Source: a virus. Taken from it: a DNA stretch of 64,000 bases. Position 1 is the first letter of the stretch, and the number at the start of each line of letters is the position of its first letter. The stretch lies in the IMG/VR virus record IMGVR_UViG_3300021599_002733. One strand, given 5' to 3'. Both the position numbers and the translations under genes were made by a program. Below the pieces are notes generated by a model. The model was not told the origin of the DNA, made no database searches, and saw nothing but the letters and a program-made list of their open reading frames with translations. This document shows positions 15,694 through 62,222 of this stretch, one piece after another.

Positions 15694-16616
15694 AGTACTT
15701 GAGGTTTTTTAGCCTCTATGATTTTAGCTATACAAGAAGCTATATTAATTTCTTTATCGATTCTGAAGTTTGCTTGGTATAGGTGCTCGTTCAATATAAT
15801 TGCTATCATACCTTCCTTTCCGGGTGCATATTTGGAGCTATATTCAAACAAAGAGCGGTATAGTTCTTCAAAGTCTTTTACTCCACTATCTGCTATAGTT
15901 TGTCTAATGGCTTTCCAATCTGGTTTTGATTGGGCTAGCTCTTTCAAAACGGATTTAATGTAGTTGTTTGCTACTAGAACTGTTTTATCCAATTGAATAC
16001 AATCATCTTTTACAGACATTTGTAAAACGTTTAACATTTTACGCATGTCAGGATAATATTGTACAATTAGTGTTTTAAGATCTTCTGGCTCATATGAAAT
16101 GTTCAATTGATCAGCTAGTATCCAAGTTAAATGGTTGTAAACGTCTTGTTTAGTTGGTGGTACAATTTTAAGTACCTGACATCTGGATTGTAGTGGGTCA
16201 ATTATTCGCTCTACAAAGTTACAGGTTAAGATAAAGCGTGTTGAGCGAGAGAATGTCTCTATTACGTTTCGAAGAGCGGCTTGTCCTTGAATGGTGATAA
16301 AATCTGCCTCGTCTAGAATTACTACTTTGATGCTTTTCCAAGATGCAGCGCTTGCAAACCCCTTTACTTTCTCTCTAATAGTGTCAATTCCGTTTTCATC
16401 GGATGCGTTTAACATGAGATAATCGCAATCTAGGTTTTTAACTATAATTTTGGCTAGAGTTGTTTTTCCCGTTCCTGCCGGAGCATAGAAAAGCATATTT
16501 GGTATATCGTTTTGATCAAGAAAACGCTGGATTGTATCTTTAACATGTTGGCTACCAACAAAATGTTCTAGGGTTGTGGGGCGAAATTTTTCATTAAATA
16601 AGGTGTTTTCCTTCAT
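15690..16616 (-). CDS. clamp loader large subunit (RFC / T4 gp44-like AAA+)
   Basis: EKFRP, PAGTGKTT Walker A, LNASDE.GID, ILDEAD, LQSRC (SRC), DMRK. Confidence 0.95.
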   Translation of the reverse strand: MKENTLFNEKFRPTTLEHFVGSQHVKDTIQRFLDQNDIPNMLFYAPAGTGKTTLAKIIVKNLDCDYLMLNASDENGIDTIREKVKGFASAASWKSIKVVILDEADFITIQGQAALRNVIETFSRSTRFILTCNFVERIIDPLQSRCQVLKIVPPTKQDVYNHLTWILADQLNISYEPEDLKTLIVQYYPDMRKMLNVLQMSVKDDCIQLDKTVLVANNYIKSVLKELAQSKPDWKAIRQTIADSGVKDFEELYRSLFEYSSKYAPGKEGMIAIILNEHLYQANFRIDKEINIASCIAKIIEAKKPQVL

Positions 16617-17353
16617 AGTTGCAACTTGTTTTTTATAACCTTTTCGTTTAATTCATCTTCCCATAATCTAATAAGAAGTTGATTATTTTCCAAACAGATT
16701 TTGTTTTTCTTTAAATCGTTTTTTCTGCTTTTAATTTGAGAAAGGTTTAATTCATGTTCCTCTAAATTTTTTCCATGCCAATAATTTCCATCTATTTCTA
16801 CTAAAACATCCATATCTGTAAGATAAAAATCAAAGTGATGGTGTTTGAATTTGTAATTTTGGATATAAGGTATTCCCCATTCTTCCAAGTATTGTTTAAA
16901 TATTCTTTCAGGTTTTGTATTCGTCTTAATTTCAGATAACGTATAATATAATGAATTGGCACAACTTCTACATAAATGTTTATTTGTGGTTTTTTGAATA
17001 CTATTTAATTGGGTATCACTTAAATTTTTCCGTTTGTGTTTTTTAATATTTCCACAGTTTGAGCAGGTTGAGGTAAATATTCTATCTTGTTTTTCCCCGT
17101 ATTTGCTAATATGCCATTTTTTTACAGCACAACTATTACATTCTCTATTATTTTTAACTGCTATCCTATATGGGTCTCTTTGTAGGAGAGAAATTTTATT
17201 ACATGTTGGGCAAGTATATTCAAATGTTTGTTTATTTGAAGATAACATACATGGTTTACATGTATTTCCTTTTCCGAATTTTCCTTTTTTGTTGTTGTAA
17301 TATTGATCTAAATGTTTTGATTGTTTACAAACATTACATGTTTTGGTTTCCAT
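16613..17353 (-). mobile_element. free-standing homing endonuclease, Zn-ribbon repeats + DUF559/Vsr-like nuclease
   Basis: Multiple CxxC, then TKPE...FDFY...VEIDGNYWH...ND..K...LIRLWE; own late motif 17367-17375. Confidence 0.8.
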
Positions 17354-17365
17354 AGTATAGTTTTA

Positions 17366-17449
17366 TTATACATATTGAAGGTAATCCCTTTTTCGCCAAA
17401 GGCATTGACCATTTTGAAAACGCTCTACATATAACGTATTTTCTTTCAT
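17366..17449 (-). pseudogene. relic 5' end of clamp loader gene (MKENTLYVERF...)
   Basis: First 11 codons match clamp loader start MKENTLFNEKF; sits right after the operon promoter. Confidence 0.75.
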
Positions 17450-17453
17450 AACC

Positions 17454-17491
17454 GTAATATACAAAAAAAGCTTGCAATTTGCAAGCCTTTT
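17454..17491 (-). terminator. fused terminator hairpin + promoter (GCTTGC-AAATT-GCAAGC-TTTTTTT; TTG-N20-TATATTAC)
   Basis: Perfect stem, U-tract, exact spacer. Confidence 0.7.
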
Positions 17492-17502
17492 AAGTTAAAA
17501 TT

Positions 17503-18060
17503 TTATTCTCCTTGTTTAAACCACCCAATATACCTTAACCTATTTTCAGGCCAATATCTATCCAATGTTGCTTTATCTACTGGGGTGTCAAGCCATTTGT
17601 CTCTTAGTTGATAGTCAGTGTATCCACTTTTTGGGTCGCTATGGGAAACATGTACATTCCCATCCCTATCAGTGTTATAATAAGTGTTAGCTAGTTCATA
17701 GTATGTTGGGTCTGGTCTTCCACTTCCATTATCTGTTGTTAATGGGAGAAGATTTTTACTGTAGCGTTCTCTTGCTGTTCTATCTTCTGCATCTGATTCT
17801 TCTCGGTATGTTCTTACCCAATATTCACTACGAAGTTTGTTGAAGATTTTTGTAACTTTACTTTTTTCTTGTGGGGTCAAAGGACGACCCATTTTATCTT
17901 CAATAAAGCTTTTAACTTCGTATTCTCCATGGTATTTGTTTTCTTCAGTAAAAGGATTATCTTTTACATATTGAGCTACTTCAGCGGAAATATCAATTTC
18001 TTCTTTTAAGATTTTTTGAATTTCCTCTTTAATGATTTGTTTTAGTTGTTCCTTTTTCAT
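17503..18060 (-). CDS. putative virion internal protein (LKQIIKEEIQKILKEE leader)
   Basis: Leader shared with 39097-39474. Confidence 0.55.
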   Translation of the reverse strand: MKKEQLKQIIKEEIQKILKEEIDISAEVAQYVKDNPFTEENKYHGEYEVKSFIEDKMGRPLTPQEKSKVTKIFNKLRSEYWVRTYREESDAEDRTARERYSKNLLPLTTDNGSGRPDPTYYELANTYYNTDRDGNVHVSHSDPKSGYTDYQLRDKWLDTPVDKATLDRYWPENRLRYIGWFKQGE

Positions 18061-18066
18061 TTCATT

Positions 18067-19047
18067 TTATTTTATAATTCCTGCTCGTCTTAGCATTTGA
18101 TATCTTTCAAAATCAAAATCTAAAGATTCTTTCAGTTTTGTTTTAAAGTCAAAAGCTATTGGTTGTAGAGCTGCTCTTTGAGATGCTGTTATACCTGTTA
18201 CAACTAGTTTGTATTTTCTTTCCTCACCTTCATCAACAGGGGAAATTTCAAATTTTGCATTTGGAACGTCTCCAAGTTTTGCTTGCAATTGTTTACGAAG
18301 TTTATCTGCTTGATCAGCTGTGTTTACAGTGGTAGAAAGTGGTGGAACTTCCTCTGCTTTTGGTTTTTCTATAGTTTGTGGTGTTTCTGTATCACCTGCT
18401 TCTATGCTGATTACTGTATAGCCTACTCCAGCGTTATCAAATACAGTTTTTAATACTTTTTCAAGGTATGCTTTTGTATTGAATGGATTTTCCATAGAGG
18501 AAGGAAATATGATTTTCCCATCTTCTACTTTGTAGTTTACATCCTTTTCCAATTTACCAGCATATTTTTTCAAGTTTGCTGGGGTTTTCATTGGAAAGTA
18601 ATTTGCTCCGTAACGGCCAACTAGCTCTTTTGGTAAACTTTTTCCAGGGAGAGAAAACAAGTAATCATTTAAACTACCATCGTTTCCTTCTGCTTGCCAT
18701 TTTTCATAGCCTGCTTCTGCTTCTTTTTCAGTAGCTGTCCATGCTTGGGGTACTCTATTTTTGATGTCTATAAGTTTGAATGCTTTTTCATCTTCCGAGC
18801 GAGAATCCCAGTCTTTCCAAGCAGCGCCTGCTTTTTGTGCAGGGATAGAAGGACCAAATGCTTTTGCAATAGCTTTAGGGTCGCGCATATTTTGCGCATA
18901 TATACCGTAATTTTCAATGTTGTCTAGTGCTTTTAGAGCATCATCTAGTGATTCTGGGTCAATGGCTAGATCATATTTGACACGAAGTTGTTTTTGGTCT
19001 CCACCTTCTTCATCTTCTATTTCACGTAGTATATCTGTTAATTTCAT
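18067..19047 (-). CDS. putative virion internal protein (MKLTDILREI leader; C-terminal MLRRAGIIK tag)
   Basis: Late motif at 19051-19059; both tag types present. Confidence 0.6.
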   Translation of the reverse strand: MKLTDILREIEDEEGGDQKQLRVKYDLAIDPESLDDALKALDNIENYGIYAQNMRDPKAIAKAFGPSIPAQKAGAAWKDWDSRSEDEKAFKLIDIKNRVPQAWTATEKEAEAGYEKWQAEGNDGSLNDYLFSLPGKSLPKELVGRYGANYFPMKTPANLKKYAGKLEKDVNYKVEDGKIIFPSSMENPFNTKAYLEKVLKTVFDNAGVGYTVISIEAGDTETPQTIEKPKAEEVPPLSTTVNTADQADKLRKQLQAKLGDVPNAKFEISPVDEGEERKYKLVVTGITASQRAALQPIAFDFKTKLKESLDFDFERYQMLRRAGIIK

Positions 19048-19058
19048 ACCTATAAATA

Positions 19059-19325
19059 TTAATAGTCTCCGTAAATGTTAAAACGTTTGGGTGGTTCAGG
19101 TGGAGCTACTGGGATTTCTTCTGTTTCGATTCGGATAACAAATAGTTCACTGTTTAAAGGTTCCAACCTAAAATGAGCATTTTCACCTGTTTTCTGGAAC
19201 CATGCCTCTAGGGTTTCAGTTAGGGAGCCATGTTCTTCTGTCTCCCCAACCAAACACCACGTATCACCTTTTCCTTTTACGCGTGTGGCGATCAATTCGT
19301 TGTATTCTACTTCTTGTGTTTCCAT
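19059..19325 (-). CDS. hypothetical protein
   Basis: 88 aa, directly downstream of groEL. Confidence 0.6.
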   Translation of the reverse strand: METQEVEYNELIATRVKGKGDTWCLVGETEEHGSLTETLEAWFQKTGENAHFRLEPLNSELFVIRIETEEIPVAPPEPPKRFNIYGDY

Positions 19326-19326
19326 A

Positions 19327-21267
<1,941 letters not shown>

Positions 21268-21271
<4 letters not shown>

Positions 21272-23307: not shown

Positions 23308-24015
23308 TCACTTATACTTCCAAATAAAACCCCCAGCTTGTTTTTGTTTCCCCGAAAGGCACCCTGCTATGTCTCCAGATCCTAGCCATTTTTTTGCTTC
23401 TGCCCGGCTGGTCCATTCTTTTATAAAATTACCTTCTAGGTCATGTTGAGTTATAGGTTTATTGTTGCGGGTTTTTCCTCTACTTGAATTGCTTATGTTT
23501 TGTTTATGTTGTTCTGTTTTAGGGATACCTTGGAGTTTTATTCCAACTTGAGGTTTCTTTTTGCCTTTATTTCCCTCCCCTATTTTTTTATTTCTAGTGA
23601 GATGTGAAGATATTTTAGCTCCAAATTCTTTGGGTCGTTTTATCCCTTTAGGGTAACCATTTGTTCCCATTTTCTTTTGGGATATTTTCCTTGCCCATTC
23701 GGGTTTATATTCTCTTTCTAAGGTATATTTTTGAATTTTTCTTTTAGCTTCTTCGGTTTGAAATTCAGGCCCACCCCCACCTTTTTTTCTTAGGTTTACT
23801 ACTTCGAACCCCCATTGTCTAAATTGTTCTATCCAATATGATTCAATAGGGCCCCAATCTTTACGATCTAAACTATTTATTTCATCTATGTAAATATAAA
23901 TAATTTGAGAACCGTAAGTTTTGATATGGTCATTCTTCCTTGAATTTTTTGTTTTTCCGATATAAACTTTGTTGGGGTCGCCGTAACAGTTTGTTACAAG
24001 GTATATTTTTGTCAT
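23308..24015 (-). mobile_element. free-standing GIY-YIG homing endonuclease with NUMOD3/NUMOD1-like domains
   Basis: KIY.....VYIGKT..R, ESYWI, GGGG, EQHKQNIS repeats, PITQHDLEGNFIKEW...AGGFIWKY. Confidence 0.85.
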
Positions 24016-24062
24016 ATGTATTATCGTATTATTGTCCGATTATACATATTGAAAAATTACAG

Positions 24063-24086
24063 AAGAGCGCAAGAAATTGCGCTCTT
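24063..24086 (-). terminator. hairpin after polB
   Basis: AAGAGCGCAA-TTTC-TTGCGCTCTT 10 bp stem. Confidence 0.7.
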
Positions 24087-24088
24087 TT

Positions 24089-33908: not shown

Positions 33909-34208
33909 TCAAAAAGGTAAATCATCATCACCAAGATTTCCCATCCAATCATGACCTTTAGGTAAATCATCATCTATATCGGATTGAATTTGCCCTGGTA
34001 GGGTTTCTAGGAAAGAAGTTGTTTCTTTTAGAAAATACATTTCTAGAAAATCTCTTGGGTATAAAAGAACTTTACCTTTAAATTTTGAATTTGATACTTC
34101 ACGGGTTTGAGCTTTAATTCCTTGTTTGCTAGCAGCGTCCCATACTTCTTTACCTAATTTTTCACCTGCTGGTTTTCTTAGGTAATCATATAAACTTAAA
34201 TATTCCAT
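33909..34208 (-). CDS. hypothetical protein with acidic DDDLPF C-terminus
   Basis: SLYDYL.K.AG..LG; SSB-like tail; start at MEYLS. Confidence 0.6.
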   Translation of the reverse strand: MEYLSLYDYLRKPAGEKLGKEVWDAASKQGIKAQTREVSNSKFKGKVLLYPRDFLEMYFLKETTSFLETLPGQIQSDIDDDLPKGHDWMGNLGDDDLPF

Positions 34209-34224
34209 AACTTTTAATTTTGGT

Positions 34225-34255
34225 TTAATATACAAAAGAAAAATATGGACTCCAA
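34225..34255 (-). promoter_or_regulatory. promoter TTG-N20-TATATTAA
   Basis: Exact spacing. Confidence 0.6.
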
Positions 34256-34256
34256 A

Positions 34257-35051
34257 TTAGAGTCCATTTATTTTTCTAAACATTTGAACATTATATTCTA
34301 CAAGATCTTCATTTACAAACTCCAAACTTATATCTTGATATTTGTTCATGTTAGCTATTGGTTTGGAAGATAAACCCATGTTTGTATATGGCATTTCTCC
34401 AATAGCGGCCATTACAGGGTTTGATGTATCAATTGATTCTATACATTTCATCCCATTATATAAACCAAATTCAATAGGAGATGCTGTTCCAAGCAAATGT
34501 ACTCTATCTGTGTCGGTTAGTATTTTGTCTTTTAGCAATTGTGATATAACTGTAAAACGTCCAATTGCTTTTCCAAGGTCTTTGTTTGGGTGAGGGCACA
34601 TTTCATTGTAGTATGAAGCACCATATGAATATGCTATCTTTTTATAGCCAAAATCTTTATATGCTTGTGTACATAGAACAGCTTCGTGGTAAGATTTTGC
34701 TTGTACTACAGCTACTTTCATTACTCCATCAGGTAGTTCAATTTGAGACCATAGTTTTGCATTTCTAACTGAGGCGTCTTTGTCCTCCCAAACATCAGGT
34801 ACAATAAATTCATTTGGTTCAAGTTTATTTATCCAATACATTAAACGATCTGTATTATATGCTTGACCTAATTCATGGAGTGAATTATCCATTACAATGT
34901 AGCGGGCTACATTTTTTGAGTTAAGAAAGAATGTACTATATTCTTCGTTTTCATCCATCAAATGGGGTAAGAGGTAATCAAAATCATTGAACTCTCGACT
35001 TTTCTCTAAAAGACAAAAAGGAACTTCATGTGATATTTTCATTTTTTTCAT
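34257..35051 (-). CDS. TGT-fold protein, putative DpdA-type 7-deazaguanine transglycosylase
   Basis: MDNS, VPDV, AVVQ, VHLLG, SIDTS in TGT barrel order; next to queC/D/E/folE. Confidence 0.7.
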   Translation of the reverse strand: MKKMKISHEVPFCLLEKSREFNDFDYLLPHLMDENEEYSTFFLNSKNVARYIVMDNSLHELGQAYNTDRLMYWINKLEPNEFIVPDVWEDKDASVRNAKLWSQIELPDGVMKVAVVQAKSYHEAVLCTQAYKDFGYKKIAYSYGASYYNEMCPHPNKDLGKAIGRFTVISQLLKDKILTDTDRVHLLGTASPIEFGLYNGMKCIESIDTSNPVMAAIGEMPYTNMGLSSKPIANMNKYQDISLEFVNEDLVEYNVQMFRKINGL

Positions 35052-35078
35052 AACTTTAAATTTTATCGAATATAATAA

Positions 35079-35684
35079 CTAAATTTTGTACCTCCAAATA
35101 TATCCAACAGAAGTAGCATTTTCTCCTTTTCTTAAAGCATTGTTAATCGCTGTAGGGTTTCCACCAACATTTCGAGCTGCTTCTTCAATGCTGGGGTGTT
35201 CTTGGATAAAATTCCCTTGTTTGTCATATTGGAGGACAGGTTTGTTATTGGATGGGATAGGTTTTCCTTTTTTAGATTGGCTTATTTTAAGTTTATTTTC
35301 TTCACTTCGTGTTTTACCTTTCCAATGGGAATTTTTTCTTTTACCTACATTCAATTTTCCTTTTTCGCTAATAAGTTTTCTGGTGTTTTCGTTGTGGGCT
35401 TCTACCCCACCTCCTCCAGGGTTTGAATTTAAACCTTCACTATATGAGTTATAGAATTCAATCCAGTATTTTTCTCGTTGAGCTAACAAAATTTCAATAT
35501 CTTCTATCACTTCAAATGTATGGTTTTCAAAACCGTATATTTCAAAGGATTGATTTAATTTTGGTTGTTTTTCAGTTTTACTACTATTCTTGTAATTCAT
35601 CCATCTAACATGGATATTTTGTGAACATCCTATATAAACTTCTCCTTTTGGGTTTGTAATTTTATAAATTCCACTTTTTTTCAT
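35079..35684 (-). mobile_element. free-standing GIY-YIG homing endonuclease (NUMOD3 + NUMOD1)
   Basis: SGIYKITN...YIG.S.NI..RW, REKYWI, GLN...GG, SEENKLKIS, PVLQYD..GNFIQE. Confidence 0.9.
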
Positions 35685-35704
35685 GTTTCCCGTTTATTAT
35701 ACAT

Positions 35705-35741
35705 ATGTGGAAGACAATAAAAAATGCGGGAGACAGTAAAA
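35705..35741 (-). repeat. tandem 18-bp imperfect direct repeat overlapping HEG late promoter (TTTTAYTGTCTYCCRCAT x2)
   Basis: 35705-35722 and 35724-35741 differ at 3 positions, all third positions of F-Y-C-L-P-H codons. Confidence 0.85.
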
Positions 35742-35746
35742 TATTT

Positions 35747-36232
35747 TTACTCTTTTACTACTAGTTCTTCTCCTATCAATGCAAAGTATAGGTTTTGGAG
35801 TTCATGAACATGGATTAAATCTTTTAAAGACCAAGTTGGAGGTGAAATTCCTTCCACTGTAATACCCATATGTTTTCTTTCAGGGTTAACAAAAGATTTC
35901 ATAATGATGATGTTTTTTAATTTGTAAATATCACACCCACTCATATTATAATCTTGTTTAACAAACCCAAATTTTAACAACCATTCTTCTGTTAGTGGGA
36001 TTGGGTCAATGTCTAAATCTCTACATCCACTATGGATGGTTCCACCCATTATTTTACCTGGGATTTCATAGAAGCAGATGATTTTGCATCCTTTCATTGC
36101 GGAGCCATCGTTAAATCCAGTTATTTGGAATTCATTGGTTTTATAGATATCGTATCCTGTCTCCCATCCATCTTCAAAGATTTCGTCTTTTATTTTAACC
36201 CAATTTCCAATCCTTAATTCACTTGCTCTCAT
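35747..36232 (-). CDS. conserved Bacteroidota-phage protein (ELRIGN...PIPLTEEWL family)
   Basis: MRASELRIGNWV, PIPLTEEWLLKFGF, VHELQNLYFAL.GEEL. Confidence 0.7.
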   Translation of the reverse strand: MRASELRIGNWVKIKDEIFEDGWETGYDIYKTNEFQITGFNDGSAMKGCKIICFYEIPGKIMGGTIHSGCRDLDIDPIPLTEEWLLKFGFVKQDYNMSGCDIYKLKNIIIMKSFVNPERKHMGITVEGISPPTWSLKDLIHVHELQNLYFALIGEELVVKE

Positions 36233-36236
36233 GACA

Positions 36237-36503
36237 TCAATTATATGCAAAATTTTTCTCTTGGGCAACTACTCTATATTCCATTTTACCATCTTCTGTT
36301 TCTTGAAAACGCGTAGCATCATATCCAATCCATTTCATACCCCATTTAGTGGTTCCTGAGTTTGAAATACCTTTAAGGATGTAAACTTGTTGATCTAAAA
36401 AATTACAATATTCTTCTTCTACATGGTATGTTTGTCCTTCTTTAACACTTGCTCCACGAGGGAGATTTTTGTCATTGATACAAATTACTTTTTTCATTTC
36501 CAT
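36237..36503 (-). CDS. hypothetical protein
   Basis: KVICIND...GYDATRF. Confidence 0.6.
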   Translation of the reverse strand: MEMKKVICINDKNLPRGASVKEGQTYHVEEEYCNFLDQQVYILKGISNSGTTKWGMKWIGYDATRFQETEDGKMEYRVVAQEKNFAYN

Positions 36504-37012
36504 TTTATTTTGTGATTTAATACTTTAATAGCATATCCATTTATTTGAGGATATCCTGTGTTATAGTATCCAAACACAATTCCCCAATTTTTATATTTTT
36601 TATACAATCTACGAAGCATTTTCATAGAAGTACGCACATTGTATTTTATATCAGTTTTTAATTGTTCACGAGAAACATGGTCTTTGTTTAAACCTCTAGC
36701 AGTAGAAAGCAATACCTGCATTGGTCCCAATGCGTTTGCACAGGAGGTTTGTGCAGGGTTGTATCTCCAATGGAATGGTCCATTATATCCTGTTTCTACT
36801 TTAGCTACTCCATAAGCATATCGTTTAGGGATATTGAATGAATCAGCATAGTATTCTATATAATGATACATTTGAATACAAGGAGGATCTGTTGGTGTAA
36901 CAGGGTGCATATCCCGAAGTGGTTCTTGTGGTGGTGGGGATGGGGGTGGGGTTAAAGATGCTAATAGCAAAAGCCCCACAGATGATCCAAATAAAACTTT
37001 TATCTTATTCAT
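36494..37012 (-). CDS. lytic transglycosylase (SLT-like) with N-terminal signal anchor
   Basis: VAKVETG catalytic Glu, ALGPMQV, NV...., GYYNTG. Confidence 0.8.
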   Translation of the reverse strand: MNKIKVLFGSSVGLLLLASLTPPPSPPPQEPLRDMHPVTPTDPPCIQMYHYIEYYADSFNIPKRYAYGVAKVETGYNGPFHWRYNPAQTSCANALGPMQVLLSTARGLNKDHVSREQLKTDIKYNVRTSMKMLRRLYKKYKNWGIVFGYYNTGYPQINGYAIKVLNHKIKWK

Positions 37013-37322
37013 TAGTGACAGCATTTTGATAAATACGATTAGTATACATTTTAAATATAGTCATTCCGATTTTATCTGAATAAATGACATATTTTCCTGT
37101 TTTTCTATCTAGCATGAGTAATTCGTTGCTTTCGTTTACAGCAATAGAGATTTCATCAGCATCATAAGCATGAGAGTAGGGGTTATCTTGTACATGAGGA
37201 TTAGTATGAGGAAATCTTTTACCAATAAAGAATCCAATTACTAAAGCTCCTACAATGATAGCATATGTAAATGCTTTTTTAGCAAAGGCCATAACCTTTT
37301 CTTTGTTCAAAACTGTTTTCAT
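37005..37322 (-). CDS. membrane-anchored protein
   Basis: TM YAIIVGALVIGFFIG; start at MKTVL. Confidence 0.6.
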   Translation of the reverse strand: MKTVLNKEKVMAFAKKAFTYAIIVGALVIGFFIGKRFPHTNPHVQDNPYSHAYDADEISIAVNESNELLMLDRKTGKYVIYSDKIGMTIFKMYTNRIYQNAVTNE

Positions 37323-37344
37323 ATAACTTATTTTTAGATTTAAT

Positions 37345-37857
37345 TTAAGATACGGAAGGATTTTTAGGAGGCCTACCTCTCCTTTCAATTTTTTTACCAG
37401 AACGTTCAAATGTTTTTAAACAATACATATAAAATTCCTCAGTTGTACCATCAAAGTTTATAACATGTGTTTCATATTCCTGGCTGGTCAGAATAAATTC
37501 TCGGGTAAAGTTCTTTTTTAGCTCAGCTAACAGATCAACTTCTATTTTGTTAAAGTCTTCCCATAAACGTTTTCTACGAGCTAAATCAACAGCATGTTTT
37601 TCTAGTAAACGTTGAATATCACCTCTATATTCTTCTGCTTTTGCATTGATTTCCATCTCACAAAACAACGCTTGCCAATAATAGTGGGAAAATTCATATT
37701 CTTTATTTTGAATACGTTGTAAAAACGTTGCTCCTTTTGGGAGTGGTTTTGTTTTTGAATCAAAACGCCTCCACCATCTAAATTGATTGTAGTTTAGCGG
37801 TTGTAATTTTTTGATTTCTTTAAGTACAAGATTGGGATTATTGATTCTATATAACAT
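37345..37857 (-). CDS. hypothetical protein, C-terminal RRGRPPK AT-hook-like
   Basis: YNQFRWWRRF; 170 aa. Confidence 0.6.
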   Translation of the reverse strand: MLYRINNPNLVLKEIKKLQPLNYNQFRWWRRFDSKTKPLPKGATFLQRIQNKEYEFSHYYWQALFCEMEINAKAEEYRGDIQRLLEKHAVDLARRKRLWEDFNKIEVDLLAELKKNFTREFILTSQEYETHVINFDGTTEEFYMYCLKTFERSGKKIERRGRPPKNPSVS

Positions 37858-37872
37858 AACCTTAATTTTAAT

Positions 37873-37903
37873 AAAATATACGAAAAAATTTTTAATGAGC
37901 CAA
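37873..37903 (-). promoter_or_regulatory. promoter TTG-N20-TATATTTT
   Basis: Exact spacing. Confidence 0.55.
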
Positions 37904-38950
37904 CTAATAGTCTATTTGATCTTCATTTTCTTTTTTAAGTTTATTTAATTTTTCTTGAAGTGGTTTAACTGCAGCCTCTGTTCGTTTTCCTATAGCCCCT
38001 GATTTTTTGATTCTTTGTATTTCTTTTTCAAGATGTTTTATTTCGTCTTCGTTTTTTGAGGAAGGTTTTGATTCGATTTTTTTTTGTTTTGGTGTGGGTG
38101 GTTTTGGAATAATTGGTTCAACTTTTGGTTCCCCATACATACTCATTACTGGTTTTAGGTTAGCGAACGCTTGGTTTGTAGCTATAACAAGTACAATTGC
38201 TAATGGATCAAACACAAATATAATTAACAGGATAAATATATTAGCTATTTGTTTTATAGGTTTACCTGTAATTTCGCTTACATATTTTACCGCCCCGAGT
38301 TCATTACCCAACTCAGCTTTAGATTGCATATCTAGAATTTGTATTTCAATATTGGTTAAACTATCGTTTAATACCTCTATTTTTTTAGATATTGCATTTT
38401 TATTTTCTGTAGCTGTATTTAATTGGGATTCGAATGCTTTTCTATTTCCGTTATTGGCTTTGGTAATGAGTTGGCCTGTTTTTTGATCCACTGTTTGTGT
38501 TGTAGTGTTTGAAGATAAAGCGTTTCGTAAATTGGATATATCTTTGTCTAGAGTTTGTTTTTCAACGGTCAACTCATTTTTAATTTCCTCAAAGCGTTTC
38601 TTTTTAACCTCTATATTGGCTATTCTTTTATCTCCGATTTCCATTTTGGAAATATTTTCTTGAAAGCCTGTGGTTAATAAACCATAGATACCTAACGAGG
38701 TAATAAAGGATAAAACAACAAGCGCAACAGTCAAATATATTTTTAATGTTACGTATGTTTTTTTCCACTGGTCATGTAGGTAGGTTGCAATGGCTATTTT
38801 GGATATTTCCAAAAACGAACCCATTACTATAACAGGTATAGCTACACTAGCAAACAATATGGAAAGACCCATTACACTATAATAGGCTGCGGTGAGAGAT
38901 AAACCAACCGCACAAAACAAGATAAAATATGGTAAAAGTTTTTCTTTCAC
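37904..38950 (-). CDS. multi-pass membrane protein with coiled coil
   Basis: 3 N-terminal TMs (AAYYSV.GL, LEISK, TSLGIYG.L), coiled coil, IIFVFDPLA TM. Confidence 0.7.
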   Translation of the reverse strand: MKEKLLPYFILFCAVGLSLTAAYYSVMGLSILFASVAIPVIVMGSFLEISKIAIATYLHDQWKKTYVTLKIYLTVALVVLSFITSLGIYGLLTTGFQENISKMEIGDKRIANIEVKKKRFEEIKNELTVEKQTLDKDISNLRNALSSNTTTQTVDQKTGQLITKANNGNRKAFESQLNTATENKNAISKKIEVLNDSLTNIEIQILDMQSKAELGNELGAVKYVSEITGKPIKQIANIFILLIIFVFDPLAIVLVIATNQAFANLKPVMSMYGEPKVEPIIPKPPTPKQKKIESKPSSKNEDEIKHLEKEIQRIKKSGAIGKRTEAAVKPLQEKLNKLKKENEDQIDY

Positions 38951-48814: not shown

Positions 48815-48859
48815 TTAATTAAAATTGTAAGTGTTTCCTTTTTTAAATTTGACTTGTAA
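48815..48859 (-). pseudogene. relic 3' end of polA gene (LQVKFKKGNTYNFN*)
   Basis: Matches current PolA C-terminus LQVKLKKGTNYHNIS* on the far side of the HNH gene. Confidence 0.8.
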
Positions 48860-48880
48860 TTGAATTATACACAATATTTT

Positions 48881-49627
48881 TTATATTTCCAAATTAGGAT
48901 CATAAATTTCTTTTTTTCCTATATTTCTATTTCCTCTTAGAGTATCTCCAAATTGTTGAGATATTTCTGTTGTTTTCCATAACGGAAAAAGATTTTCTAA
49001 ACTCCAACATTCTTTAATTTCTTCAACATTCAAAACATCAAATAGATTTTGTGGTTTAATATGATGAATTTCCCAAACATTTCCAAAATTATCCCAACAC
49101 ATTCCGTTCCTGAATTTGTTTTCTATATGGGATTGGAGTTGATCAAATGTATAGGAAATTATTTTGGAAAAAGATAAATTTTTGTTTTTTCCTTTATCTT
49201 TAAAAAATAAATGGAAATTTGCTTTCATAACAGTTTGTAACTTAAATTGAATGTTATTTTTATATTTTATCTTCCAATTTAATTTTCTTTTTTCTTTTAC
49301 ATTATCTTGTTTAGAATAAATTAACAATCGTTCTTTATTATCTTGATAGTATTTTTCCCAATACCCATTTTCCTTGTACTTTTTATTGAATTTATCTCTT
49401 TGGATCTGATATTTTTCTGGGTTGTTTTGTTTCCATATTTTATGTCGTTCTGTTTCTTTTTTAGTATAATATTGTTGGTTTTTTAAATATGACTGTTTTA
49501 CACTAATTTTTACACATATCTTACATCTTTTATTAAAACCATCTTCTGTGTTTTTATTTTTATTAAAATTACATAAAGGTTGGGGGGTTTCTTTTAAATG
49601 GCATTTTGGGTTATTACATACTTTCAT
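48881..49627 (-). mobile_element. free-standing HNH homing endonuclease
   Basis: N-terminal Cys knuckle, charged helical repeats, M.WDN.G..WEIHHIKP...C..L.NL.PLW; start at MKVCNN. Confidence 0.85.
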
Positions 49628-49645
49628 TTTATCATAAATATTGAA

Positions 49646-49663
49646 AGTCTCCAAGTTTTGTAA
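49646..49663 (-). promoter_or_regulatory. putative operator / target mimic TTACAAAACTTGGAGACT abutting late motif
   Basis: Synonymous variant of polA codons LQNLET at 49873-49890. Confidence 0.6.
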
Positions 49664-49668
49664 ATTTT

Positions 49669-50931
49669 CTATGAAATATTATGATAATTTGTGCCTTTTT
49701 TGAGTTTAACTTGTAATTTGTTTTTTTTAAATACTTTTAATATTTCTTTTAAAATATCTTTTTCACTTTTATCTACGTCAAATAAAAAAGAATCATAGAC
49801 ATACAAGATCAACTTTGTATTTTTTCCTCTAAGTAATTTTAAAATATCCCACAATATTAATATGTTCTGGGAAGTTTCTAGGTTTTGAAGTAAGTAATTT
49901 AATAACTTTTGTGGATTCATATCCTCCAACTGGTCTCTTTTATATATGTGTTTTGAAATTGGACATTCAATGTATCCTTGATAGTTAAAGGTATCCCACA
50001 AATCATCTGTGTATGATTGCATTTTCTTAAAAAATTCAAGGTGTTCATATTCTTTCCAAACACCACCATACATTTGTTTAAATGTTATTTCTTTAGACTT
50101 GGCGTAATCCACTCCATACATTTCAGCAAAACTTTGATGAATATCATCGCTAGAAAAAGTATAATCAAGTAAATTGGCCAAAAGAGTAGGATGATAAGCG
50201 CTAATATCCATTTCAAGGAAAAAATCATTACGCGGGATGAAACATTTTCTTTCTCCATTGTCTTTGTTTAATGCTGCAAAATTTATACCCCCAAATTTAT
50301 TGGAAGGGCGAGTTGTTGTTGTACTTAAATTATATTGGGTGTATATATAACCTCCATTATTTTTGTTAAAATATTCCTCAAATAAAGGAACATTTACTTT
50401 TATTCCATTGCGCTCTATAGCGTTAAATACAATAGTTGTTTTATCGTTATAGAATTTGTTTGGTTGTATATCAAAGTATTCTTTTAATGTATCAAAATGT
50501 CTTTCACAAACTTCATAATGTTTAACAATAGGAACAATTATGTTTATATTTTTTTGCTCTGGGTATTTGGAGTAAAAGAATGAATGTGTTGTAGTTGTTT
50601 CTTTTTCAAATTTAGGGTGTAGTAGGGTAAGGGAAACTATAGTTGGGTGGTAAAAGTAGTGTAAAAATTCCTTTTTATCTATCACATATATTTTCTCTAT
50701 ACTATATAATAGTTCTTGAACTAAATTAAAATCAACGCGAAACGTTTCGCTATGATGAACAGTCACCATATGCCCCTTACTTCCATCTACCGGTTTAATA
50801 TACACGGTAGATACGCTGTTTTCGGTTGGGTGGATGGTAGGTGAGAAAGGAATTACTTCAACATATGCTTCCTTTATTTTTATTGTGGAGAGTATGTCTA
50901 TTTTTTCCTTATCTTCTATCAACCAGTACAT
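49669..50931 (-). CDS. compact DNA polymerase family A
   Basis: IERNGI, TTTTRPS, CFIP, DISAYH (motif A), KEITF..MYG (motif B), NY.LQ, VYDS (motif C). Confidence 0.8.
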   Translation of the reverse strand: MYWLIEDKEKIDILSTIKIKEAYVEVIPFSPTIHPTENSVSTVYIKPVDGSKGHMVTVHHSETFRVDFNLVQELLYSIEKIYVIDKKEFLHYFYHPTIVSLTLLHPKFEKETTTTHSFFYSKYPEQKNINIIVPIVKHYEVCERHFDTLKEYFDIQPNKFYNDKTTIVFNAIERNGIKVNVPLFEEYFNKNNGGYIYTQYNLSTTTTRPSNKFGGINFAALNKDNGERKCFIPRNDFFLEMDISAYHPTLLANLLDYTFSSDDIHQSFAEMYGVDYAKSKEITFKQMYGGVWKEYEHLEFFKKMQSYTDDLWDTFNYQGYIECPISKHIYKRDQLEDMNPQKLLNYLLQNLETSQNILILWDILKLLRGKNTKLILYVYDSFLFDVDKSEKDILKEILKVFKKNKLQVKLKKGTNYHNIS

Positions 50932-57070: not shown

Positions 57071-57083
57071 ATATAAAACTTAA

Positions 57084-57299
57084 TTATTCAGGTAAGTTAT
57101 CCAAATATTTTGGTGGAGTCACGCCATTCAAATCTAATTGTGATGGGGTTGGAAATCCTGTCATGTTTGGGTTACCATTAATTGAATATTGATAGTGTAA
57201 AGTTGAACCTTGCACATCAATGTTTGCTGGTGGTGGAGTTGCCCCATCAAAATCAGTTAACTGTGATCCGTCTGTTGTAAGTTTGTTTAATAGTCCCAT
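57084..57299 (-). CDS. small late virion protein
   Basis: SQLDLNG.TP.KY.DNLP; late motif 57314-57322. Confidence 0.6.
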   Translation of the reverse strand: MGLLNKLTTDGSQLTDFDGATPPPANIDVQGSTLHYQYSINGNPNMTGFPTPSQLDLNGVTPPKYLDNLPE

Positions 57300-57329
57300 G
57301 GTTGTTTATTTTATTATAAATATTAAATA

Positions 57330-59750
57330 TTATTGAACTTTTAAAGTTGATATAGAATTTACTTTACCTGTCATTGCAATCAAAGCATCTAATCGAGCAT
57401 TTGTACCTGCATTTGTATCAACTGGTGTTTCTTTTTTAGGTGCTGTTTTGTTAGATACGGTAACTGATCCTTTAGGGGAAGAAACCATGTCATCGGCTTT
57501 ATCAAATAGGTTAGTTCCTGCTATTACTGTATCTTTGTCGTTTAATTGGATAGCTCCTTCTGGTCCGAATAGGGTGCGTTTACCGTAGCCACCACCTGAG
57601 TCCCCAGGGGACATAATGTCATTGCCTTTTTTAGATGAAGATGTAGCTAAACTAACCATTCCTGCTATTGTTGTAATCGCTAATGGGATTCCTAGACCAA
57701 ATGGGATTTTAGCAAATGACTCAAATATAGAGAATATAGCAGTCATTATAGCTTGAGCTTTCATAGCAACCAATGCAGCTGTTAAACCTACAATAATGGG
57801 TTGACCTTCTTTTAGACCATTTACAAACATACCAACCAAGTCTCCGATAAGGCTAAAACCTTCAATTAGTGGTGAAAGGAGGAAATTAATAGCTGGAAGA
57901 ACATTAGATACTATATCCATTAGTGGGGATAAGATTGATAGAATAGGGTTTGCTAACTGTACAAATAATTCTTGTAATTTTTCAACTGATTGGTTAAATC
58001 GTTCTTGTACAGATTGTTGTTCATATTGGTTAGCTAATCCTTCATCCCCTAAACGTTTTTTAGCTTCTTCCATTCCAACCTCTTTTACAAGGTTGTTAAA
58101 GCGTTCTTGTGCTGTTTTTCCTTCAACCCCAGATAGTTTAGCTAATGCTTCTCTATCCATTAAAGATTGGGCAAGTTCATCTTTTGTCATCCCAGCAGCT
58201 TTTGCTATAGCTTCTTGTTGGATAACGTTCATTTTAGCAAATTCAGCAGAAGTACCAACTTGTTTTGCTATTTCTTCAGCAGCTTTTGCTGTTTCTCCAT
58301 TTAAAGCTAAACCTCTTGCTCGCTCAAAATTTAAATCTCTACCAGTTAGTAACTCAGCGCTTAACTCACCTTCAATGGATGATTCAAATTGTAGTAAACT
58401 TTGTGATATTTTTTCGGCTTGCTCTAAGTTTAAACCAAATTGTCTTGCTCTAACTGCAGCCTCTGCTACCGCTTCCGCACTTCCACCTAAAGTTAACTTT
58501 AAAGAAGCAGATGCTTTAGATACATCCCTTAACACTTGTTTTTCGTTTATAACAAGTTTGTTGCGAGAAGCATATGCTTTAGCACCACCAAGTATTTCTG
58601 CTGTGTTTTGCTCTAGTGTTTTATTGTTTATTAGAGATAATTGCTGTATACCATATAATTCCTCATTGGTATATCCTGCTTGTTCTCTGAGTTTGGTGAA
58701 TGTTTTAAGATCAGCCTCATTCAATTTTGCATTTGATCCTAATTGTGCACCAACAAATGTTAAAGTTTCTTGGAGGTTTTTAGTGTTTAAAGCAGCATCC
58801 ATGGAGGTAGCTGCAATATTGCCTAGTTCTCGTCTAACGTTTAGGGCCTCGGAGTATGTTAAATTAAAGTCTTTAGCTAACTTTCCTGCTCCATCATCTG
58901 TTGCTTTAAGGGCAGCAGTCATTTGTGTGATAAAGCCAAGAGCAAGGTTAGCTGGGTTTAGAAGGCCTGATTTGATTTGTCCACCTATATTTTTAAAGGC
59001 AGCTCCCATTCCACTAACTGCTGTTCCTCCTTTTCTAATGTTTCCTTCTGCTTCTTTTAATGCTTCATTAGCATCAAACATGTTACCTAAAATAGGTATT
59101 TTAGATATTCCTTTTAAAGCTCCCCCAAGTATCCCTGTTTTTTTCTCAATACCCTCCGTTAATTTAGATTCTTCATTTAACAATTTGTTAGTTTCATGGA
59201 GAATAGAATCTTTTTCTTCTAAAAGACTATTAATGTTATTATATACGGTTTGAGATTGTGCAAGTTTTTTAATTTCCTCCTCAGTTAATGTATCTTTTTT
59301 AGATAAATCATCAATTGTTTGAGCAAGTGATTGTTGGTTAGATTTAAGTTTATCTTTTTCAACTCTATATTGTTCTTGTAAGGATTTTAATTGTTTGGAA
59401 GATAAAGAAGATAAACCTTTTTGATGTTCTTTTAATTTTTCTGAGATACTAGAAAGGGAATTAATGGAAGATTTAGAGGAGTTTATAGTATTTTTATAAC
59501 CCTTCACCTCATCTAAAATAGCTTTCCATGATTTGGTAATATCTCCGATACCTCCATCCATATCATGGAGAATATCATTGGCATTTTCTAATTCATCTTT
59601 TAAAACACCAACATTATCTATAAAGTCTTTAGCTTCTTTTCCACTAAAGGGGTTGGCCAAACCTATTTTTTTATAGGCCCTTTCAATGTCCGAAAGGAGC
59701 TCCTTTATTCGTTGGAGTTCTTGTGAGTTTGGACCTTGTTGTTTTGCCAT
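57330..59750 (-). CDS. tape measure protein
   Basis: 806 aa helical Ala/Leu-rich, hydrophobic C-terminal region; follows chaperone pair. Confidence 0.8.
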   Translation of the reverse strand: MAKQQGPNSQELQRIKELLSDIERAYKKIGLANPFSGKEAKDFIDNVGVLKDELENANDILHDMDGGIGDITKSWKAILDEVKGYKNTINSSKSSINSLSSISEKLKEHQKGLSSLSSKQLKSLQEQYRVEKDKLKSNQQSLAQTIDDLSKKDTLTEEEIKKLAQSQTVYNNINSLLEEKDSILHETNKLLNEESKLTEGIEKKTGILGGALKGISKIPILGNMFDANEALKEAEGNIRKGGTAVSGMGAAFKNIGGQIKSGLLNPANLALGFITQMTAALKATDDGAGKLAKDFNLTYSEALNVRRELGNIAATSMDAALNTKNLQETLTFVGAQLGSNAKLNEADLKTFTKLREQAGYTNEELYGIQQLSLINNKTLEQNTAEILGGAKAYASRNKLVINEKQVLRDVSKASASLKLTLGGSAEAVAEAAVRARQFGLNLEQAEKISQSLLQFESSIEGELSAELLTGRDLNFERARGLALNGETAKAAEEIAKQVGTSAEFAKMNVIQQEAIAKAAGMTKDELAQSLMDREALAKLSGVEGKTAQERFNNLVKEVGMEEAKKRLGDEGLANQYEQQSVQERFNQSVEKLQELFVQLANPILSILSPLMDIVSNVLPAINFLLSPLIEGFSLIGDLVGMFVNGLKEGQPIIVGLTAALVAMKAQAIMTAIFSIFESFAKIPFGLGIPLAITTIAGMVSLATSSSKKGNDIMSPGDSGGGYGKRTLFGPEGAIQLNDKDTVIAGTNLFDKADDMVSSPKGSVTVSNKTAPKKETPVDTNAGTNARLDALIAMTGKVNSISTLKVQ

Positions 59751-59787
59751 TTAATATTTTATTATAAATATTGAAACCTGCAGAGTT

Positions 59788-60091
59788 TTATTTGTACTTT
59801 GCAGGTTTCTTATATTGTTCACTAGCTTGTAGGAATTCTGGGGTGTTTACTTTTCCTGATGGGTCTATTAGGTTCTTTTGTTTACCCCCATTTTGGGAAT
59901 TGTCTATTTGTTCTTTTTGTTTGGTATAGTATTCTTGTATCTTATTGAATGTAAATTTACGTAACCAAATAGGCATATTGTATATAGTATTCCAATCATA
60001 TCCACCTTGTCCATGAAAACATATTTCATGTATTTGTGTAAAAAGCGCGGCTCTAGCCTGGGGTGCTATATCAAATGTCAGGCCAAAAAAA
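59788..60091 (-). CDS. tail/baseplate hub assembly protein (gp51-like), probably translated via frameshift
   Basis: LFTQIHE..FHG.GGY.W..IYNMP.W.R; no in-frame ATG between 60126 and MPIW; opens across T7 run. Confidence 0.65.
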
Positions 60092-60799
60092 GCTAACCCC
60101 AATTGGGATATTGACTCCAACCCCATCGTCACTGGGAAAGAATGTTAGATCCACGTCTGGTTGTAAATTTTTAATATATTCTCTTAATGCACGAGAATCT
60201 TTTGCTAACAGATAATTATCTACAAAATCACGAATATCTTTTTTCTCTCTAGCACCCTCAACTGATGTGATAATGTATTTCAATCGTGTGGTCAAATCTG
60301 ATGATGCTTCTTTGTTGATTTTCTTTAAACCTTCAAGTTCACGGTTAATGTCCTGCTCATCTTTATGTGTTAAGAAACGAAACGTTACACGGTTACCAGA
60401 ATGGGGTAAAACAAACTCAAACTCGTTTACTTTACGTGATTCAATTTCTGGTTTGAGAGGTAAGTTTTCTAGTTGGGATAAGTCTATTGTGTGAGATTCT
60501 CCGTCGTAATCAAATGAGTAATCTTTTCCATAACCTAAAACACGGGCTGCAACCATAATTGCATTCTTGTCTCCAATTAACAATTCATCATAATTGATTG
60601 GGGATACGATCAATGCTTTCATCAATTTGTCTAGCACTGTTCCATTTTTAATGTAGGATTGGTTGGTAAGAATATCCTCGTGTTTAGCTGTCATGTAGGA
60701 CATTTCAACTACTCCTTTTGATAATTCGGATCCTTCGGGATAAAGTAAACCTTTAGAAGGCAATTCAACAGTTTCTGTTGGAAGTTTAAATTCACTCAT
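60071..60799 (-). CDS. baseplate hub subunit / tail assembly chaperone (gp26-like)
   Basis: VELPSKG..Y, MTAKHEDIL, GDKNA....AR...YG, LP.S...VTF..LT, FFWP. Confidence 0.75.
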   Translation of the reverse strand: MSEFKLPTETVELPSKGLLYPEGSELSKGVVEMSYMTAKHEDILTNQSYIKNGTVLDKLMKALIVSPINYDELLIGDKNAIMVAARVLGYGKDYSFDYDGESHTIDLSQLENLPLKPEIESRKVNEFEFVLPHSGNRVTFRFLTHKDEQDINRELEGLKKINKEASSDLTTRLKYIITSVEGAREKKDIRDFVDNYLLAKDSRALREYIKNLQPDVDLTFFPSDDGVGVNIPIGVSFFWPDI

Positions 60800-60844
60800 A
60801 GATTTTATTTTATTATAACTTTATTTATCATATATAAATATATT

Positions 60845-60884
60845 GAAAGATAAGAAGCCTACCTAAACTAGGCAAGCTTCTTTT
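60845..60884 (-). terminator. hairpin + promoter module after tail tube gene
   Basis: AGAAGCTTGCCTA-GTT-TAGGTAGGCTTCT; related to 15016/22874 modules; late motif follows. Confidence 0.6.
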
Positions 60885-60922
60885 CAAAAAATTTAAAAAT
60901 ATGTTGTTGTTAGATTGTACTA

Positions 60923-61411
60923 TCAGAAATTCAATACACAGTAATCTGGCTGAACTGTCATAGTAATGTTTGTGGCAACTCCATCATCATCCCAGCTATA
61001 ATCACCAAATGTGGCACTAGTAATCATGGCTCCTTTAACTACCCATTCAGAAACGATATCTCCAACTGGTCCTACGATATTGAATGTCAAATCTTTCTTG
61101 TAGAAATCAGAATAACCATCTCTACCTGTTACAGATTCGTGATGTAAACGAACCCATTCCATTACTGCTTGAGCTCCACTTGGAGTGATTGGATCAAACA
61201 ATGTAAAATCGATAGTATTCCATGTTGTTTTTCCTTTTACAAAACGTTGAACGTTAATGTGGTTAAGAGCAACAGCTGTTTGTGATAAAGATACAGCACC
61301 CATTCCTTTTACCATATAAGATGGAATACCATCAATGTATAGAATAAATCGGTTGGTTTGTTTTGGTTCAAAAGCCGTAAAAAAGACCTCATTAGGATCA
61401 AGAATAGCCAT
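60923..61411 (-). CDS. tail tube protein (T4 gp19-like)
   Basis: EPKQ.NRF, KGK..W..I..TL.DPI.PS...V.EW, YKKD, W...GA. Confidence 0.88.
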   Translation of the reverse strand: MAILDPNEVFFTAFEPKQTNRFILYIDGIPSYMVKGMGAVSLSQTAVALNHINVQRFVKGKTTWNTIDFTLFDPITPSGAQAVMEWVRLHHESVTGRDGYSDFYKKDLTFNIVGPVGDIVSEWVVKGAMITSATFGDYSWDDDGVATNITMTVQPDYCVLNF

Positions 61412-61471
61412 AATTTTTTTAATTTAATTTGTTTATCGATGATACATATATGAAATAGAAGGAAAATGTAC

Positions 61472-62155
61472 CTAATTTTTACTTTTATTTCTATTTCCTG
61501 TTTGATCTACATATCCAAAACTTTTTGCTATTTCTGTTGTTTTAAATAGGGGTTGGAGGTTGGTGTAGTGGAAGCATTCTTTTTGTTGATCCAAATCTAT
61601 TAAATCAAAGGAAGCACAAGGTTTGATATGATCTACTTCCCAAATTTCTCCGTGATTTTTCCAAGACATTTCTGGGAGGAATTGGGTTGAGATGTGTTGT
61701 TTTAGGTAATCTAAGGAGCAATCTAAAAGTTGGATGATATTACTATTTTTATATGTTTTGTTCTTCTTTAAAACTTCATTTAATCTATTACCTAATATAA
61801 TTCTTAATTTATAATTTGTATCATTTTCCCATTTATTTTTTCTCCAAATCTTAAAATACTCTGCATTATTACGTCTCCATTTATTGTATGTTTGTTTTGT
61901 TTGGGTAGGATTATTTTTTTGGTAAGCTATACTTTTTTGATTAACTTTCTGTTTGTTTGTTTGGTAGTATTTTTTGCTGTTTAATTGGTATTTTTCTTTA
62001 TTTTCTTGATAGTAGAGTTGATTGTGTTCTCTTTTAAGGTTATTGTATTCTATTCTACATAAGGTGCAAATATTGTTGTATCCATCTTTGGATGATGTTT
62101 TTTTATAGAAATTTGAATATTCTTTCTCTTGGAGGCATTTTGTACATTTTTTCAT
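61472..62155 (-). mobile_element. free-standing HNH homing endonuclease (paralogue of 48881-49627)
   Basis: CTKC..EK...F......DG....C..C, MSW.NHG..WEVDHIKP..SF...CFHYTNLQPL; start at MKKCTK. Confidence 0.88.
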
Positions 62156-62194
62156 AATATGTCGTTTGGGTCCATTATACATATTGAGAAAAAC

Positions 62195-62222
62195 AAAAAG
62201 AGTGCAATAATTTGCACTCCTT
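62195..62222 (-). terminator. intrinsic terminator after sheath gene
   Basis: GAGTGCAA-ATTA-TTGCACTC followed by TTTTTGTTTTT. Confidence 0.75.

Follow-up and report, generated by a model that had tools for sequence, protein, structure and literature searches.

Can the target of a free-standing homing endonuclease be read from the DNA in front of its own gene? This question is raised by a stretch of viral DNA of 64,000 nucleotides (nt; IMG/VR record IMGVR_UViG_3300021599_002733), referred to here as the window, which covers bases 2553-66552 of one T4-like phage contig of 102 kb. The window holds five free-standing nuclease genes, at 35079-35684, 48881-49627, 61472-62155, 23308-24015 and 16613-17353, which are named below by their first coordinate. 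An initial annotation had pointed to short strings beside the promoters of several of them that, read as codons, spell a peptide of the neighbouring gene, and had proposed that each nuclease's target in competing phages can be read from its promoter. All of the quoted strings (YCLPH twice, LQNLET, DPNDI and YYRI) are present where they were placed, YYRI on the plus strand only. Promoter-side mimics are borne out for GIY-YIG 35079, HNH 48881 and HNH 61472, whereas YYRI at 23308 is a chance match. The proposal therefore survives for three of the five window nucleases and for one family in relatives, and not for 23308 or 16613.

Our preferred reading is that these three cassettes, and the family in relatives, carry a copy of their own target beside an immune resident allele, and that the copy serves as an autorepression operator. 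We give this reading as a whole a probability of roughly 0.55. Under this scheme, the nuclease would recognise a site in the neighbouring gene of non-carriers, while the resident neighbour allele would have been co-converted along with the cassette and would carry changes at the site that make the carrier immune. The promoter-side copy, against or just 3' of a late-type promoter, would be a selected binding site through which the nuclease, once made, shuts off its own promoter. Putative binding without productive cleavage would arise because, as we propose, cleavage determinants in the flanks are missing. Recognition of the site in non-carriers, with carrier immunity via the altered allele, is strongly supported by the allele comparisons. 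Selection is the best-supported reading of why the promoter copy is kept, given its conservation in a handful of carriers. Operator function, with repression by the nuclease itself, is most likely by analogy with known phage systems.

Relatives of the neighbouring genes (loci with L numbers) were taken from IMG/VR and Joint Genome Institute (JGI) metagenomes. Nuclease genes are present in some of these otherwise syntenic relatives and absent in others, as is typical of Seg/Mob-type endonucleases. Two further Seg/Mob-type traits are also seen, namely a recognisable nuclease domain, with a strength of match that varies gene by gene, and, in divergence profiles, a co-converted flank bounded by the predicted cut site. 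A trait of the I-TevI type, target-like sequence over or against the nuclease's own promoter, is found at 35705-35738, 49647-49664 and 62156-62172. The promoters concerned carry a 14-nt motif, TCAATATGTATAAT, that recurs with near variants 5' of structural genes and stands in perfect form in front of three nuclease genes; the label "late-type promoter" is given by position only. The sites coincide exactly with the beginning or the end of the excess divergence seen in the resident genes. Tracts of this kind would be left behind if a break at the site were repaired from a diverged carrier, importing nuclease and flank together.

At HNH 48881, the neighbour is a polA-like gene. Of the 28 relatives carrying both this gene and p153, 25 lack an intervening nuclease gene and have the two side by side; in L011, L027 and L030, about 0.8-1.5 kb separates the two, and the insert of L011 holds a different HNH gene. 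At the LQNLET site, relatives for the most part share the 18 nt of the element in front of the nuclease, which matches nuclease-less polA alleles at 17-18 of 18 positions in at least six loci (L015, L016, L018, L019, L020 and L024) and is an exact 18-mer in all of these except L020. The resident polA site matches it at only 13 of 18, with five synonymous changes in the window. Compared with L024, polA shows an abrupt rise at the site, to 13 mismatches per 30 nt, followed by 6-11 as far as the stop codon, and 3' of HNH 48881 the count drops to 0-2. The 54 nt that follow the nuclease gene as a relic align to L024 602-655, which also aligns to the resident polA end. In L275, where an HNH gene 55% identical occupies the same locus, the otherwise invariant LQNLET of the resident polA is mutated to LQATET. 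A pattern scan of IMG/VR for further cassettes of this type returned 47 places, of which only the two already known were real. The protein itself is recognisable by motif: C4, C9, C35, C38, H189, N212 and N233 are invariant in alignment A1, and an AlphaFold model built from a six-sequence alignment was unusable (mean predicted local distance difference test score 62.7, catalytic part poor). Neither HNH 48881 nor HNH 61472 has a Pfam match; in PHROG both fall in an endonuclease VII family, and a conserved His/Asn motif and a four-Cys ribbon are seen.

GIY 35079, whose Pfam GIY-YIG match lies above that family's cut-off, sits between p88 and p264. A GIY-YIG gene is absent from this position in about 15 relatives and present in L004, L322 and L332. 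In nuclease-less relatives, p264 encodes exactly YCLPH, the peptide that both tandem elements spell, while the four GIY-YIG carriers encode YLLPH, YALPH (twice) and YMLPH. The Cys codon has thus been lost in four of four carriers, in three ways (CTC, GCT and ATG), and is kept in about 13-15 nuclease-less genomes (Fisher p ~0.007, phylogeny ignored). At the DNA level, the elements are identical to nuclease-less alleles at 11-13 of 15 positions and to nuclease-bearing alleles at 8-10. The second element (35705-35719) shares 3 nt with the promoter motif. Both copies are retained in L004 and L332, although the DNA to their left is unrelated among these two genomes and the window; the pair is part of the cassette. 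Against the close nuclease-less relative L340, p264 shows 22 mismatches in its first 90 nt, and from the base after the site onward 0-1 per 30 nt. A PDB sequence search with p264 gave no match.

A separate observation concerns the gene directly 5' of this cassette (35747-36268), which belongs to a family of 161-173 amino acids (aa; PHROG 10066). A member stands likewise 5' of the cassette in L004 (2731-3138), with only 35% identity between the two. The gene is missing from nuclease-less relatives except L341 (1-408), which lacks the nuclease and keeps the Cys codon.

HNH 61472 separates the tail sheath and tail tube genes, which are adjacent in 77 of 77 relatives where both were matched. The initial annotation had started this gene at 62227; the most likely start is ATG 62155, which places the element between the -10 box and the start codon. 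The element matches nuclease-less tube alleles at 16 of 17 positions in 14 loci (mean 14.7 over 79 alleles) and the resident allele at 11 of 17. Over its first 30 nt, the resident tube gene differs from nuclease-less alleles by 10.3 mismatches, compared with 2.5 among those alleles, and from nt 31 its divergence equals background. The element is also found in L278, again between -10 box and start codon, next to a tube allele that has been recoded differently. A PDB sequence search with HNH 61472 found no match. For all three cassettes, then, the expectations that nuclease-less alleles lie closer to the elements than resident ones, and that resident alleles are recoded at the sites and non-carrier alleles conserved, have held up.

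Two minor observations were made at the tube locus. The HNH 61472-like gene of L278 and L279 (L278 2376-3118) matches in two frames and may be frameshifted, with its upstream element retained. In addition, the present tube promoter 3' of HNH 61472 (window 61412-61471; L278 3130-3200) is unlike the usual tube promoter of relatives and resembles a nuclease-type variant that precedes GIY genes in L233 and L213; it is apparently provided by the cassette.

Table 1. Positions of nuclease genes, promoter-side elements and associated features (window numbering unless loci are given).
Feature	Position	Strand	Remarks
Free-standing HNH-type endonuclease gene with N-terminal four-Cys ribbon (HNH 48881)	48881..49627	-	PHROG 1035, weak
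Late-type promoter motif of HNH 48881	49631..49645	-	
Intact 18-nt copy of the LQNLET site of nuclease-less polA alleles	49647..49664	-	Ends 9 nt before -10 hexamer; LQNLET string at 49646-49663
Diverged polA-like 3' part, apparently brought with the cassette	49669..49896	-	Recoded resident site at 49873-49890
Relic of original polA 3' end (last 54 nt), 3' of HNH gene	48837..48890	-	
Free-standing GIY-YIG + NUMOD1 homing endonuclease gene (GIY 35079)	35079..35684	-	Pfam GIY-YIG E=2e-6, NUMOD1 5.5e-5; PHROG 314 2.5e-26
Late-type promoter motif of GIY 35079	35696..35708	-	Matches motif recurring 5' of structural and nuclease genes
Two tandem 15-nt target-like elements, each spelling YCLPH	35705-35719 and 35724-35738	-	
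p264 5' end, apparently imported with the nuclease	34962..35051	-	Putatively immune resident site YLLPH at 34962-34976
HNH-type endonuclease gene between sheath and tube (HNH 61472)	61472..62155	-	PHROG 1035 E=4.7e-11
17-nt copy of tube codons 5-10 of nuclease-less alleles	62156-62172	-	DPNDI at 62158-62172
Perfect promoter motif	62174-62187	-	5' of 17-nt tube copy
Recoded first 30 nt of tail tube gene, putatively immune resident allele	61382..61411	-	DPNEV at 61385-61399
Vsr-like (PD-(D/E)xK type) endonuclease gene in clamp-loader 5' end	16613..17353	-	Pfam Vsr 3.9e-5 (below cut-off); PHROG 559 8e-14
In-situ relic: original upstream region and first 11 clamp-loader codons	17416..17476	-	
Replacement, recoded clamp-loader 5' end, apparently from the cassette	16572..16616	-	
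Terminator, perfect promoter motif and 5' untranslated region of GIY-YIG 23308	24016..24088	-	Mobile module
Hot spot after family-B DNA polymerase gene	Loci L199, L214, L219, L223-L227, L233, L238, L246, L251, L257, L263		

The statistical weight of these resemblances depends on what is compared. Peptide likeness to the resident neighbour, on which the initial annotation had relied, does not rise above chance. When upstream regions were translated in six frames and scored against all 143 predicted proteins, the neighbour was never the clear best, and a gene at 3763-3780 also encodes LQNLET and outscores polA. This second LQNLET lies in an unrelated 293-aa gene and is most likely a coincidence; paralogy as its source was rejected (BLASTP E ~0.1 to polA). 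It cautions that matches of six residues can arise by chance in this DNA. At the DNA level, shuffles of the longest exact match against all 3.2 Mb of loci, and windows of plain match counts, proved weak statistics, the latter with a background averaging 14.5 of 17. Because of this high AT-rich background, an information-weighted score was used instead, in which G and C matches are weighted, with 400 shuffles per element and about 400 nt of each neighbouring gene around the insertion point in nuclease-less loci as targets. With this score, the HNH 48881 element reached 33.1 bits against 19.8 +/- 2.0 (0/400 shuffles as high) and the HNH 61472 element 29.3 bits against 22.7 +/- 2.2 (4/400).

The other two nucleases are arranged differently. 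Gene 16613, which had been annotated as HNH, is Vsr-like instead and lies in the 5' end of the clamp-loader gene. The relic 5' of it matches L120 exactly over 61 nt and many nuclease-less loci over 38-53 nt, with homology stopping after codon 11. The resident clamp loader begins MKENTLFNEKF, compared with MKENTLYVERF in nuclease-less alleles, and its first 45 nt hold 15.8 mismatches against a background of 3.4. L121 has the same arrangement of Vsr-like gene and clamp loader. A reverse-strand mimic, picked out by eye between the relic and the 16613 promoter, was dropped because its bases are not conserved in L121. Both displaced termini that had been singled out at the outset, those of the clamp loader and polA, are real relics.

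The GIY-like gene 23308 has only a C-terminal NUMOD-like match. Its terminator, promoter and 5' untranslated region (UTR) also precede related nucleases in L011 (at another locus), L233 and L213. No neighbour copy of this UTR was found at up to 4 mismatches. YYRI (24019-24030) was rejected as a neighbour mimic, since the UTR travels with the nuclease to other loci and lacks a neighbour copy. A 14-nt polB match was likewise set aside, no neighbour copy having been found.

Further cases were sought among the relatives. From all fetched loci, 102 nuclease-like open reading frames (ORFs) were gathered, and 83 distinct upstream regions were scanned, with reversed sequences as decoys, for stretches that recur nearly exactly in the coding DNA of homologues of the neighbouring genes; only multi-locus matches were trusted. 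A first version of the scan was discarded because its output was dominated by the in-situ homology that ends of upstream genes show. The second gave 28 real against 15 decoy queries, and the real ones were mainly matches of promoter to promoter. It also uncovered a further GIY-YIG family with a promoter-side copy (L255/L215/L216, L249 and L264), laid out as the neighbour's stop codon, a 19-nt copy, the -10 box and the nuclease gene. In nuclease-less alleles (15-17 loci), the site that is copied lies about 40 nt upstream, and each of the three carriers has its resident site recoded in a way of its own. Since this family was found and no copy exists at GIY 23308, the layout is recurrent rather than universal. 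The window has a nuclease-less 98-aa gene (20975-21271) with a near-consensus site of this family at 20993-21010 (2 mismatches), and the phage is therefore a predicted recipient of its nuclease. More broadly, at least two nuclease folds in an abundant aquatic clade of T4-like phages may routinely carry a selected, intact homing-site copy at the promoter and double as repressors, a tentative generalisation to which we would give somewhat less than even odds.

Could the copies instead be functionless scars of cassette building or insertion, in which a replacement terminus was brought in and original pieces, including the target site, were left behind? The clamp-loader locus is exactly of this kind, with a promoter region and 11 codons stranded 5' of the nuclease, and another 5' relic occurs in L013. 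The polA 3' end is duplicated 3' of HNH 48881, and L275 keeps the whole displaced terminus of 68 codons. The HNH 61472 element, too, corresponds to codons 5-10 of the tube gene and lies directly against the start of the nuclease gene, the position expected of a 5' relic. However, the displaced terminus of L275 begins mid-site, so the insertion point falls within the LQNLET site; as the element holds both halves, it is not a junction scar. The element is a third, uninterrupted copy, and the nuclease gene lies between it and the real relic. Such a copy follows the stop codon of the new polA end and precedes the promoter in the window, L275 and L276 alike. It ends at a distance of exactly 9 nt from the -10 hexamer in all three, and 15-17 of 17 nt are conserved, across HNH proteins that are only about 55% identical. 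By contrast, the real relic decays, being mostly deleted in two of the three, and the spacer to the left of the copy is unrelated. Similarity ends sharply at the edges of the elements, the flanks of which differ from those of the targets. The GIY 35079 elements are in tandem and inside the cassette in three genomes with unrelated left flanks. Together, these features leave scars an unlikely explanation.

Certain phage endonucleases of the HNH type, I-HmuI among them, nick carrier DNA as well as recipient DNA. This would fit another possibility, that the copy is not a transcriptional operator but a working cis site, nicked or cut in the phage's own genome. Such cutting could promote recombination-dependent replication in the vicinity of the nuclease gene, or enable dead copies to be replaced by active ones. 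It would agree with the HNH 48881-type element, a complete and perfect target with no sign of degeneration, and with L278, which seems to hold a frameshifted nuclease beside a retained element. Nevertheless, in four families the copy is placed strictly against the -10 box, which points to transcription, and the altered resident site of carriers argues that self-cutting is costly. We regard this possibility as slightly less probable than scars.

Chance matching of short AT-rich strings read as codons is highly improbable: although the neighbour is not the top-scoring resident protein, LQNLET recurs in an unrelated gene, plain match counts have a high background, YYRI is a chance match and GIY 35079 has p ~0.2, the weighted shuffles refute chance for HNH 48881 and HNH 61472, the differing positions favour the element in nuclease-less alleles, and there is independent agreement with tract boundaries and with elements in other nuclease-bearing genomes.

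Several points weigh against the reading of the copies as selected operators, in addition to the clamp-loader relic. Two of the five window nucleases, 23308 and 16613, have no promoter-side mimic, and most of the 83 upstream regions gave no copy at the threshold used. The HNH 61472 element sits 3' rather than 5' of the -10 box, and could equally be the remnant of a displaced original tube start. Shuffled controls, which set both HNH elements apart, do not do so for GIY 35079 (21.2 bits against 19.4 +/- 2.1; 81/400 as high, not significant), although the best-scoring position in that test is the YCLPH site itself. The DNA similarity of 11-13 of 15 is insufficient by itself in this case. An intact target in the carrier genome would be a liability unless, as is assumed here, cleavage needs flanks that the copy lacks. 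Binding, absence of cleavage and repression are properties that we infer for these nucleases from analogy. Finally, removal of the I-TevI operator from T4 had no noticeable effect on viability (PMC2988022).

I-TevI is the closest precedent for an operator of this kind. According to the summary of Edgell et al. 2004 in PMC2988022, its operator over the late promoter has 15 of 20 nt in common with the homing site. The enzyme binds this operator as tightly as the homing site and cuts it about 100-fold less well (PMC2988022). GIY 35079 resembles I-TevI in being a GIY-YIG gene with a homing-site-like sequence overlapping its late-type promoter, here through the second element, and its protein is of the same GIY-YIG + NUMOD module type. 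Unlike I-TevI, which is intron-encoded, the nucleases described here are free-standing, their target lies in a neighbouring gene 100-250 nt away, and their putative operators, which include one exact 18-nt copy and one tandem pair, are read from sequence alone.

The initial annotation had further claimed that this logic extends across unrelated nuclease families. The GIY-YIG and HNH cases of the window agree with this, but the idea is not wholly new. PMC2988022 (Figure 4B) aligns proven or putative operators of I-TevI, I-TevII (GIY-YIG) and I-TevIII (HNH), all intron-encoded, and the logic is thus already proposed across families. Like the elements described here, those of I-TevII and I-TevIII, from the T4 nrdD and nrdB introns, are target-like sequences over middle or late promoters, and their operators are putative too; they differ in being intron-encoded. 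Literature searches for promoter-side target copies at free-standing endonucleases found no report.

Other features are shared with SegF, SegG and MobE. These are also encoded between conserved genes and find their target in the neighbouring gene of non-carriers, the carrier allele being resistant and the flank co-converted up to the cut, which results in intronless homing and marker exclusion. For these enzymes, no promoter-side target copy is described in the literature searched, whereas in the present cases both the co-conversion boundary and the target can be proposed from the sequence itself. The clamp-loader and polA loci, in turn, recall Allomyces atp6, an organelle gene with a terminus-replacing endonuclease insertion (a GIY-YIG ORF). 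There, too, the mobile unit supplies a substitute gene end and the displaced end is left as a relic, although that system is mitochondrial and is not known to involve a promoter operator.

Ordinarily, the target of a free-standing homing endonuclease comes to light only through mixed infections and mapping of the cleavage site, both of them laborious. In the present case, sequence allows three likely targets to be named in one phage and one in its relatives, with three independent lines of evidence for each: the copy at the promoter, the alteration of the carrier's allele and the boundary of the tract. Should the copies be operators, target-mimic autorepression would not be peculiar to T4 introns but a design that phage endonuclease cassettes use in general, extending the logic of intron endonucleases to free-standing ones. 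This would bear on how selfish nuclease genes limit damage to their carriers. It would also offer an inexpensive way to search for new sequence-specific nucleases and to obtain their binding sites at the same time, with nuclease specificity, immune alleles and co-conversion tracts predictable from metagenomic sequence without enzyme assays.

The genomic setting is that of a T4-like phage. Almost all genes of the window lie on the minus strand, and T4-like replication and tail genes are encoded. The sheath protein shares 50% identity with its counterpart in Flavobacterium phage immuto. No closeness to cultured phages was found at the DNA level, a megablast of 34000-38000 against them returning nothing.

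Other nuclease insertions were noticed in this phage and its relatives. In the phage's own genome, outside the window (~85260-86768 in window numbering), a 502-aa ORF was drawn in by the iterative nuclease search, and may be a fused or intein-like nuclease-bearing gene. The junction 3' of the family-B DNA polymerase gene is a hot spot, occupied by several different GIY-YIG families in different relatives. In L280 (1913-5070) and also in L281, the homologue of the window gene at 10353-11786 is interrupted after residue 172 by an HNH gene. The small ORF that follows looks like a ribbon-helix-helix protein, and a second HNH gene is preceded by a similar ORF. These HNH genes and small ORFs may be nuclease cassettes with a repressor-like gene of their own.

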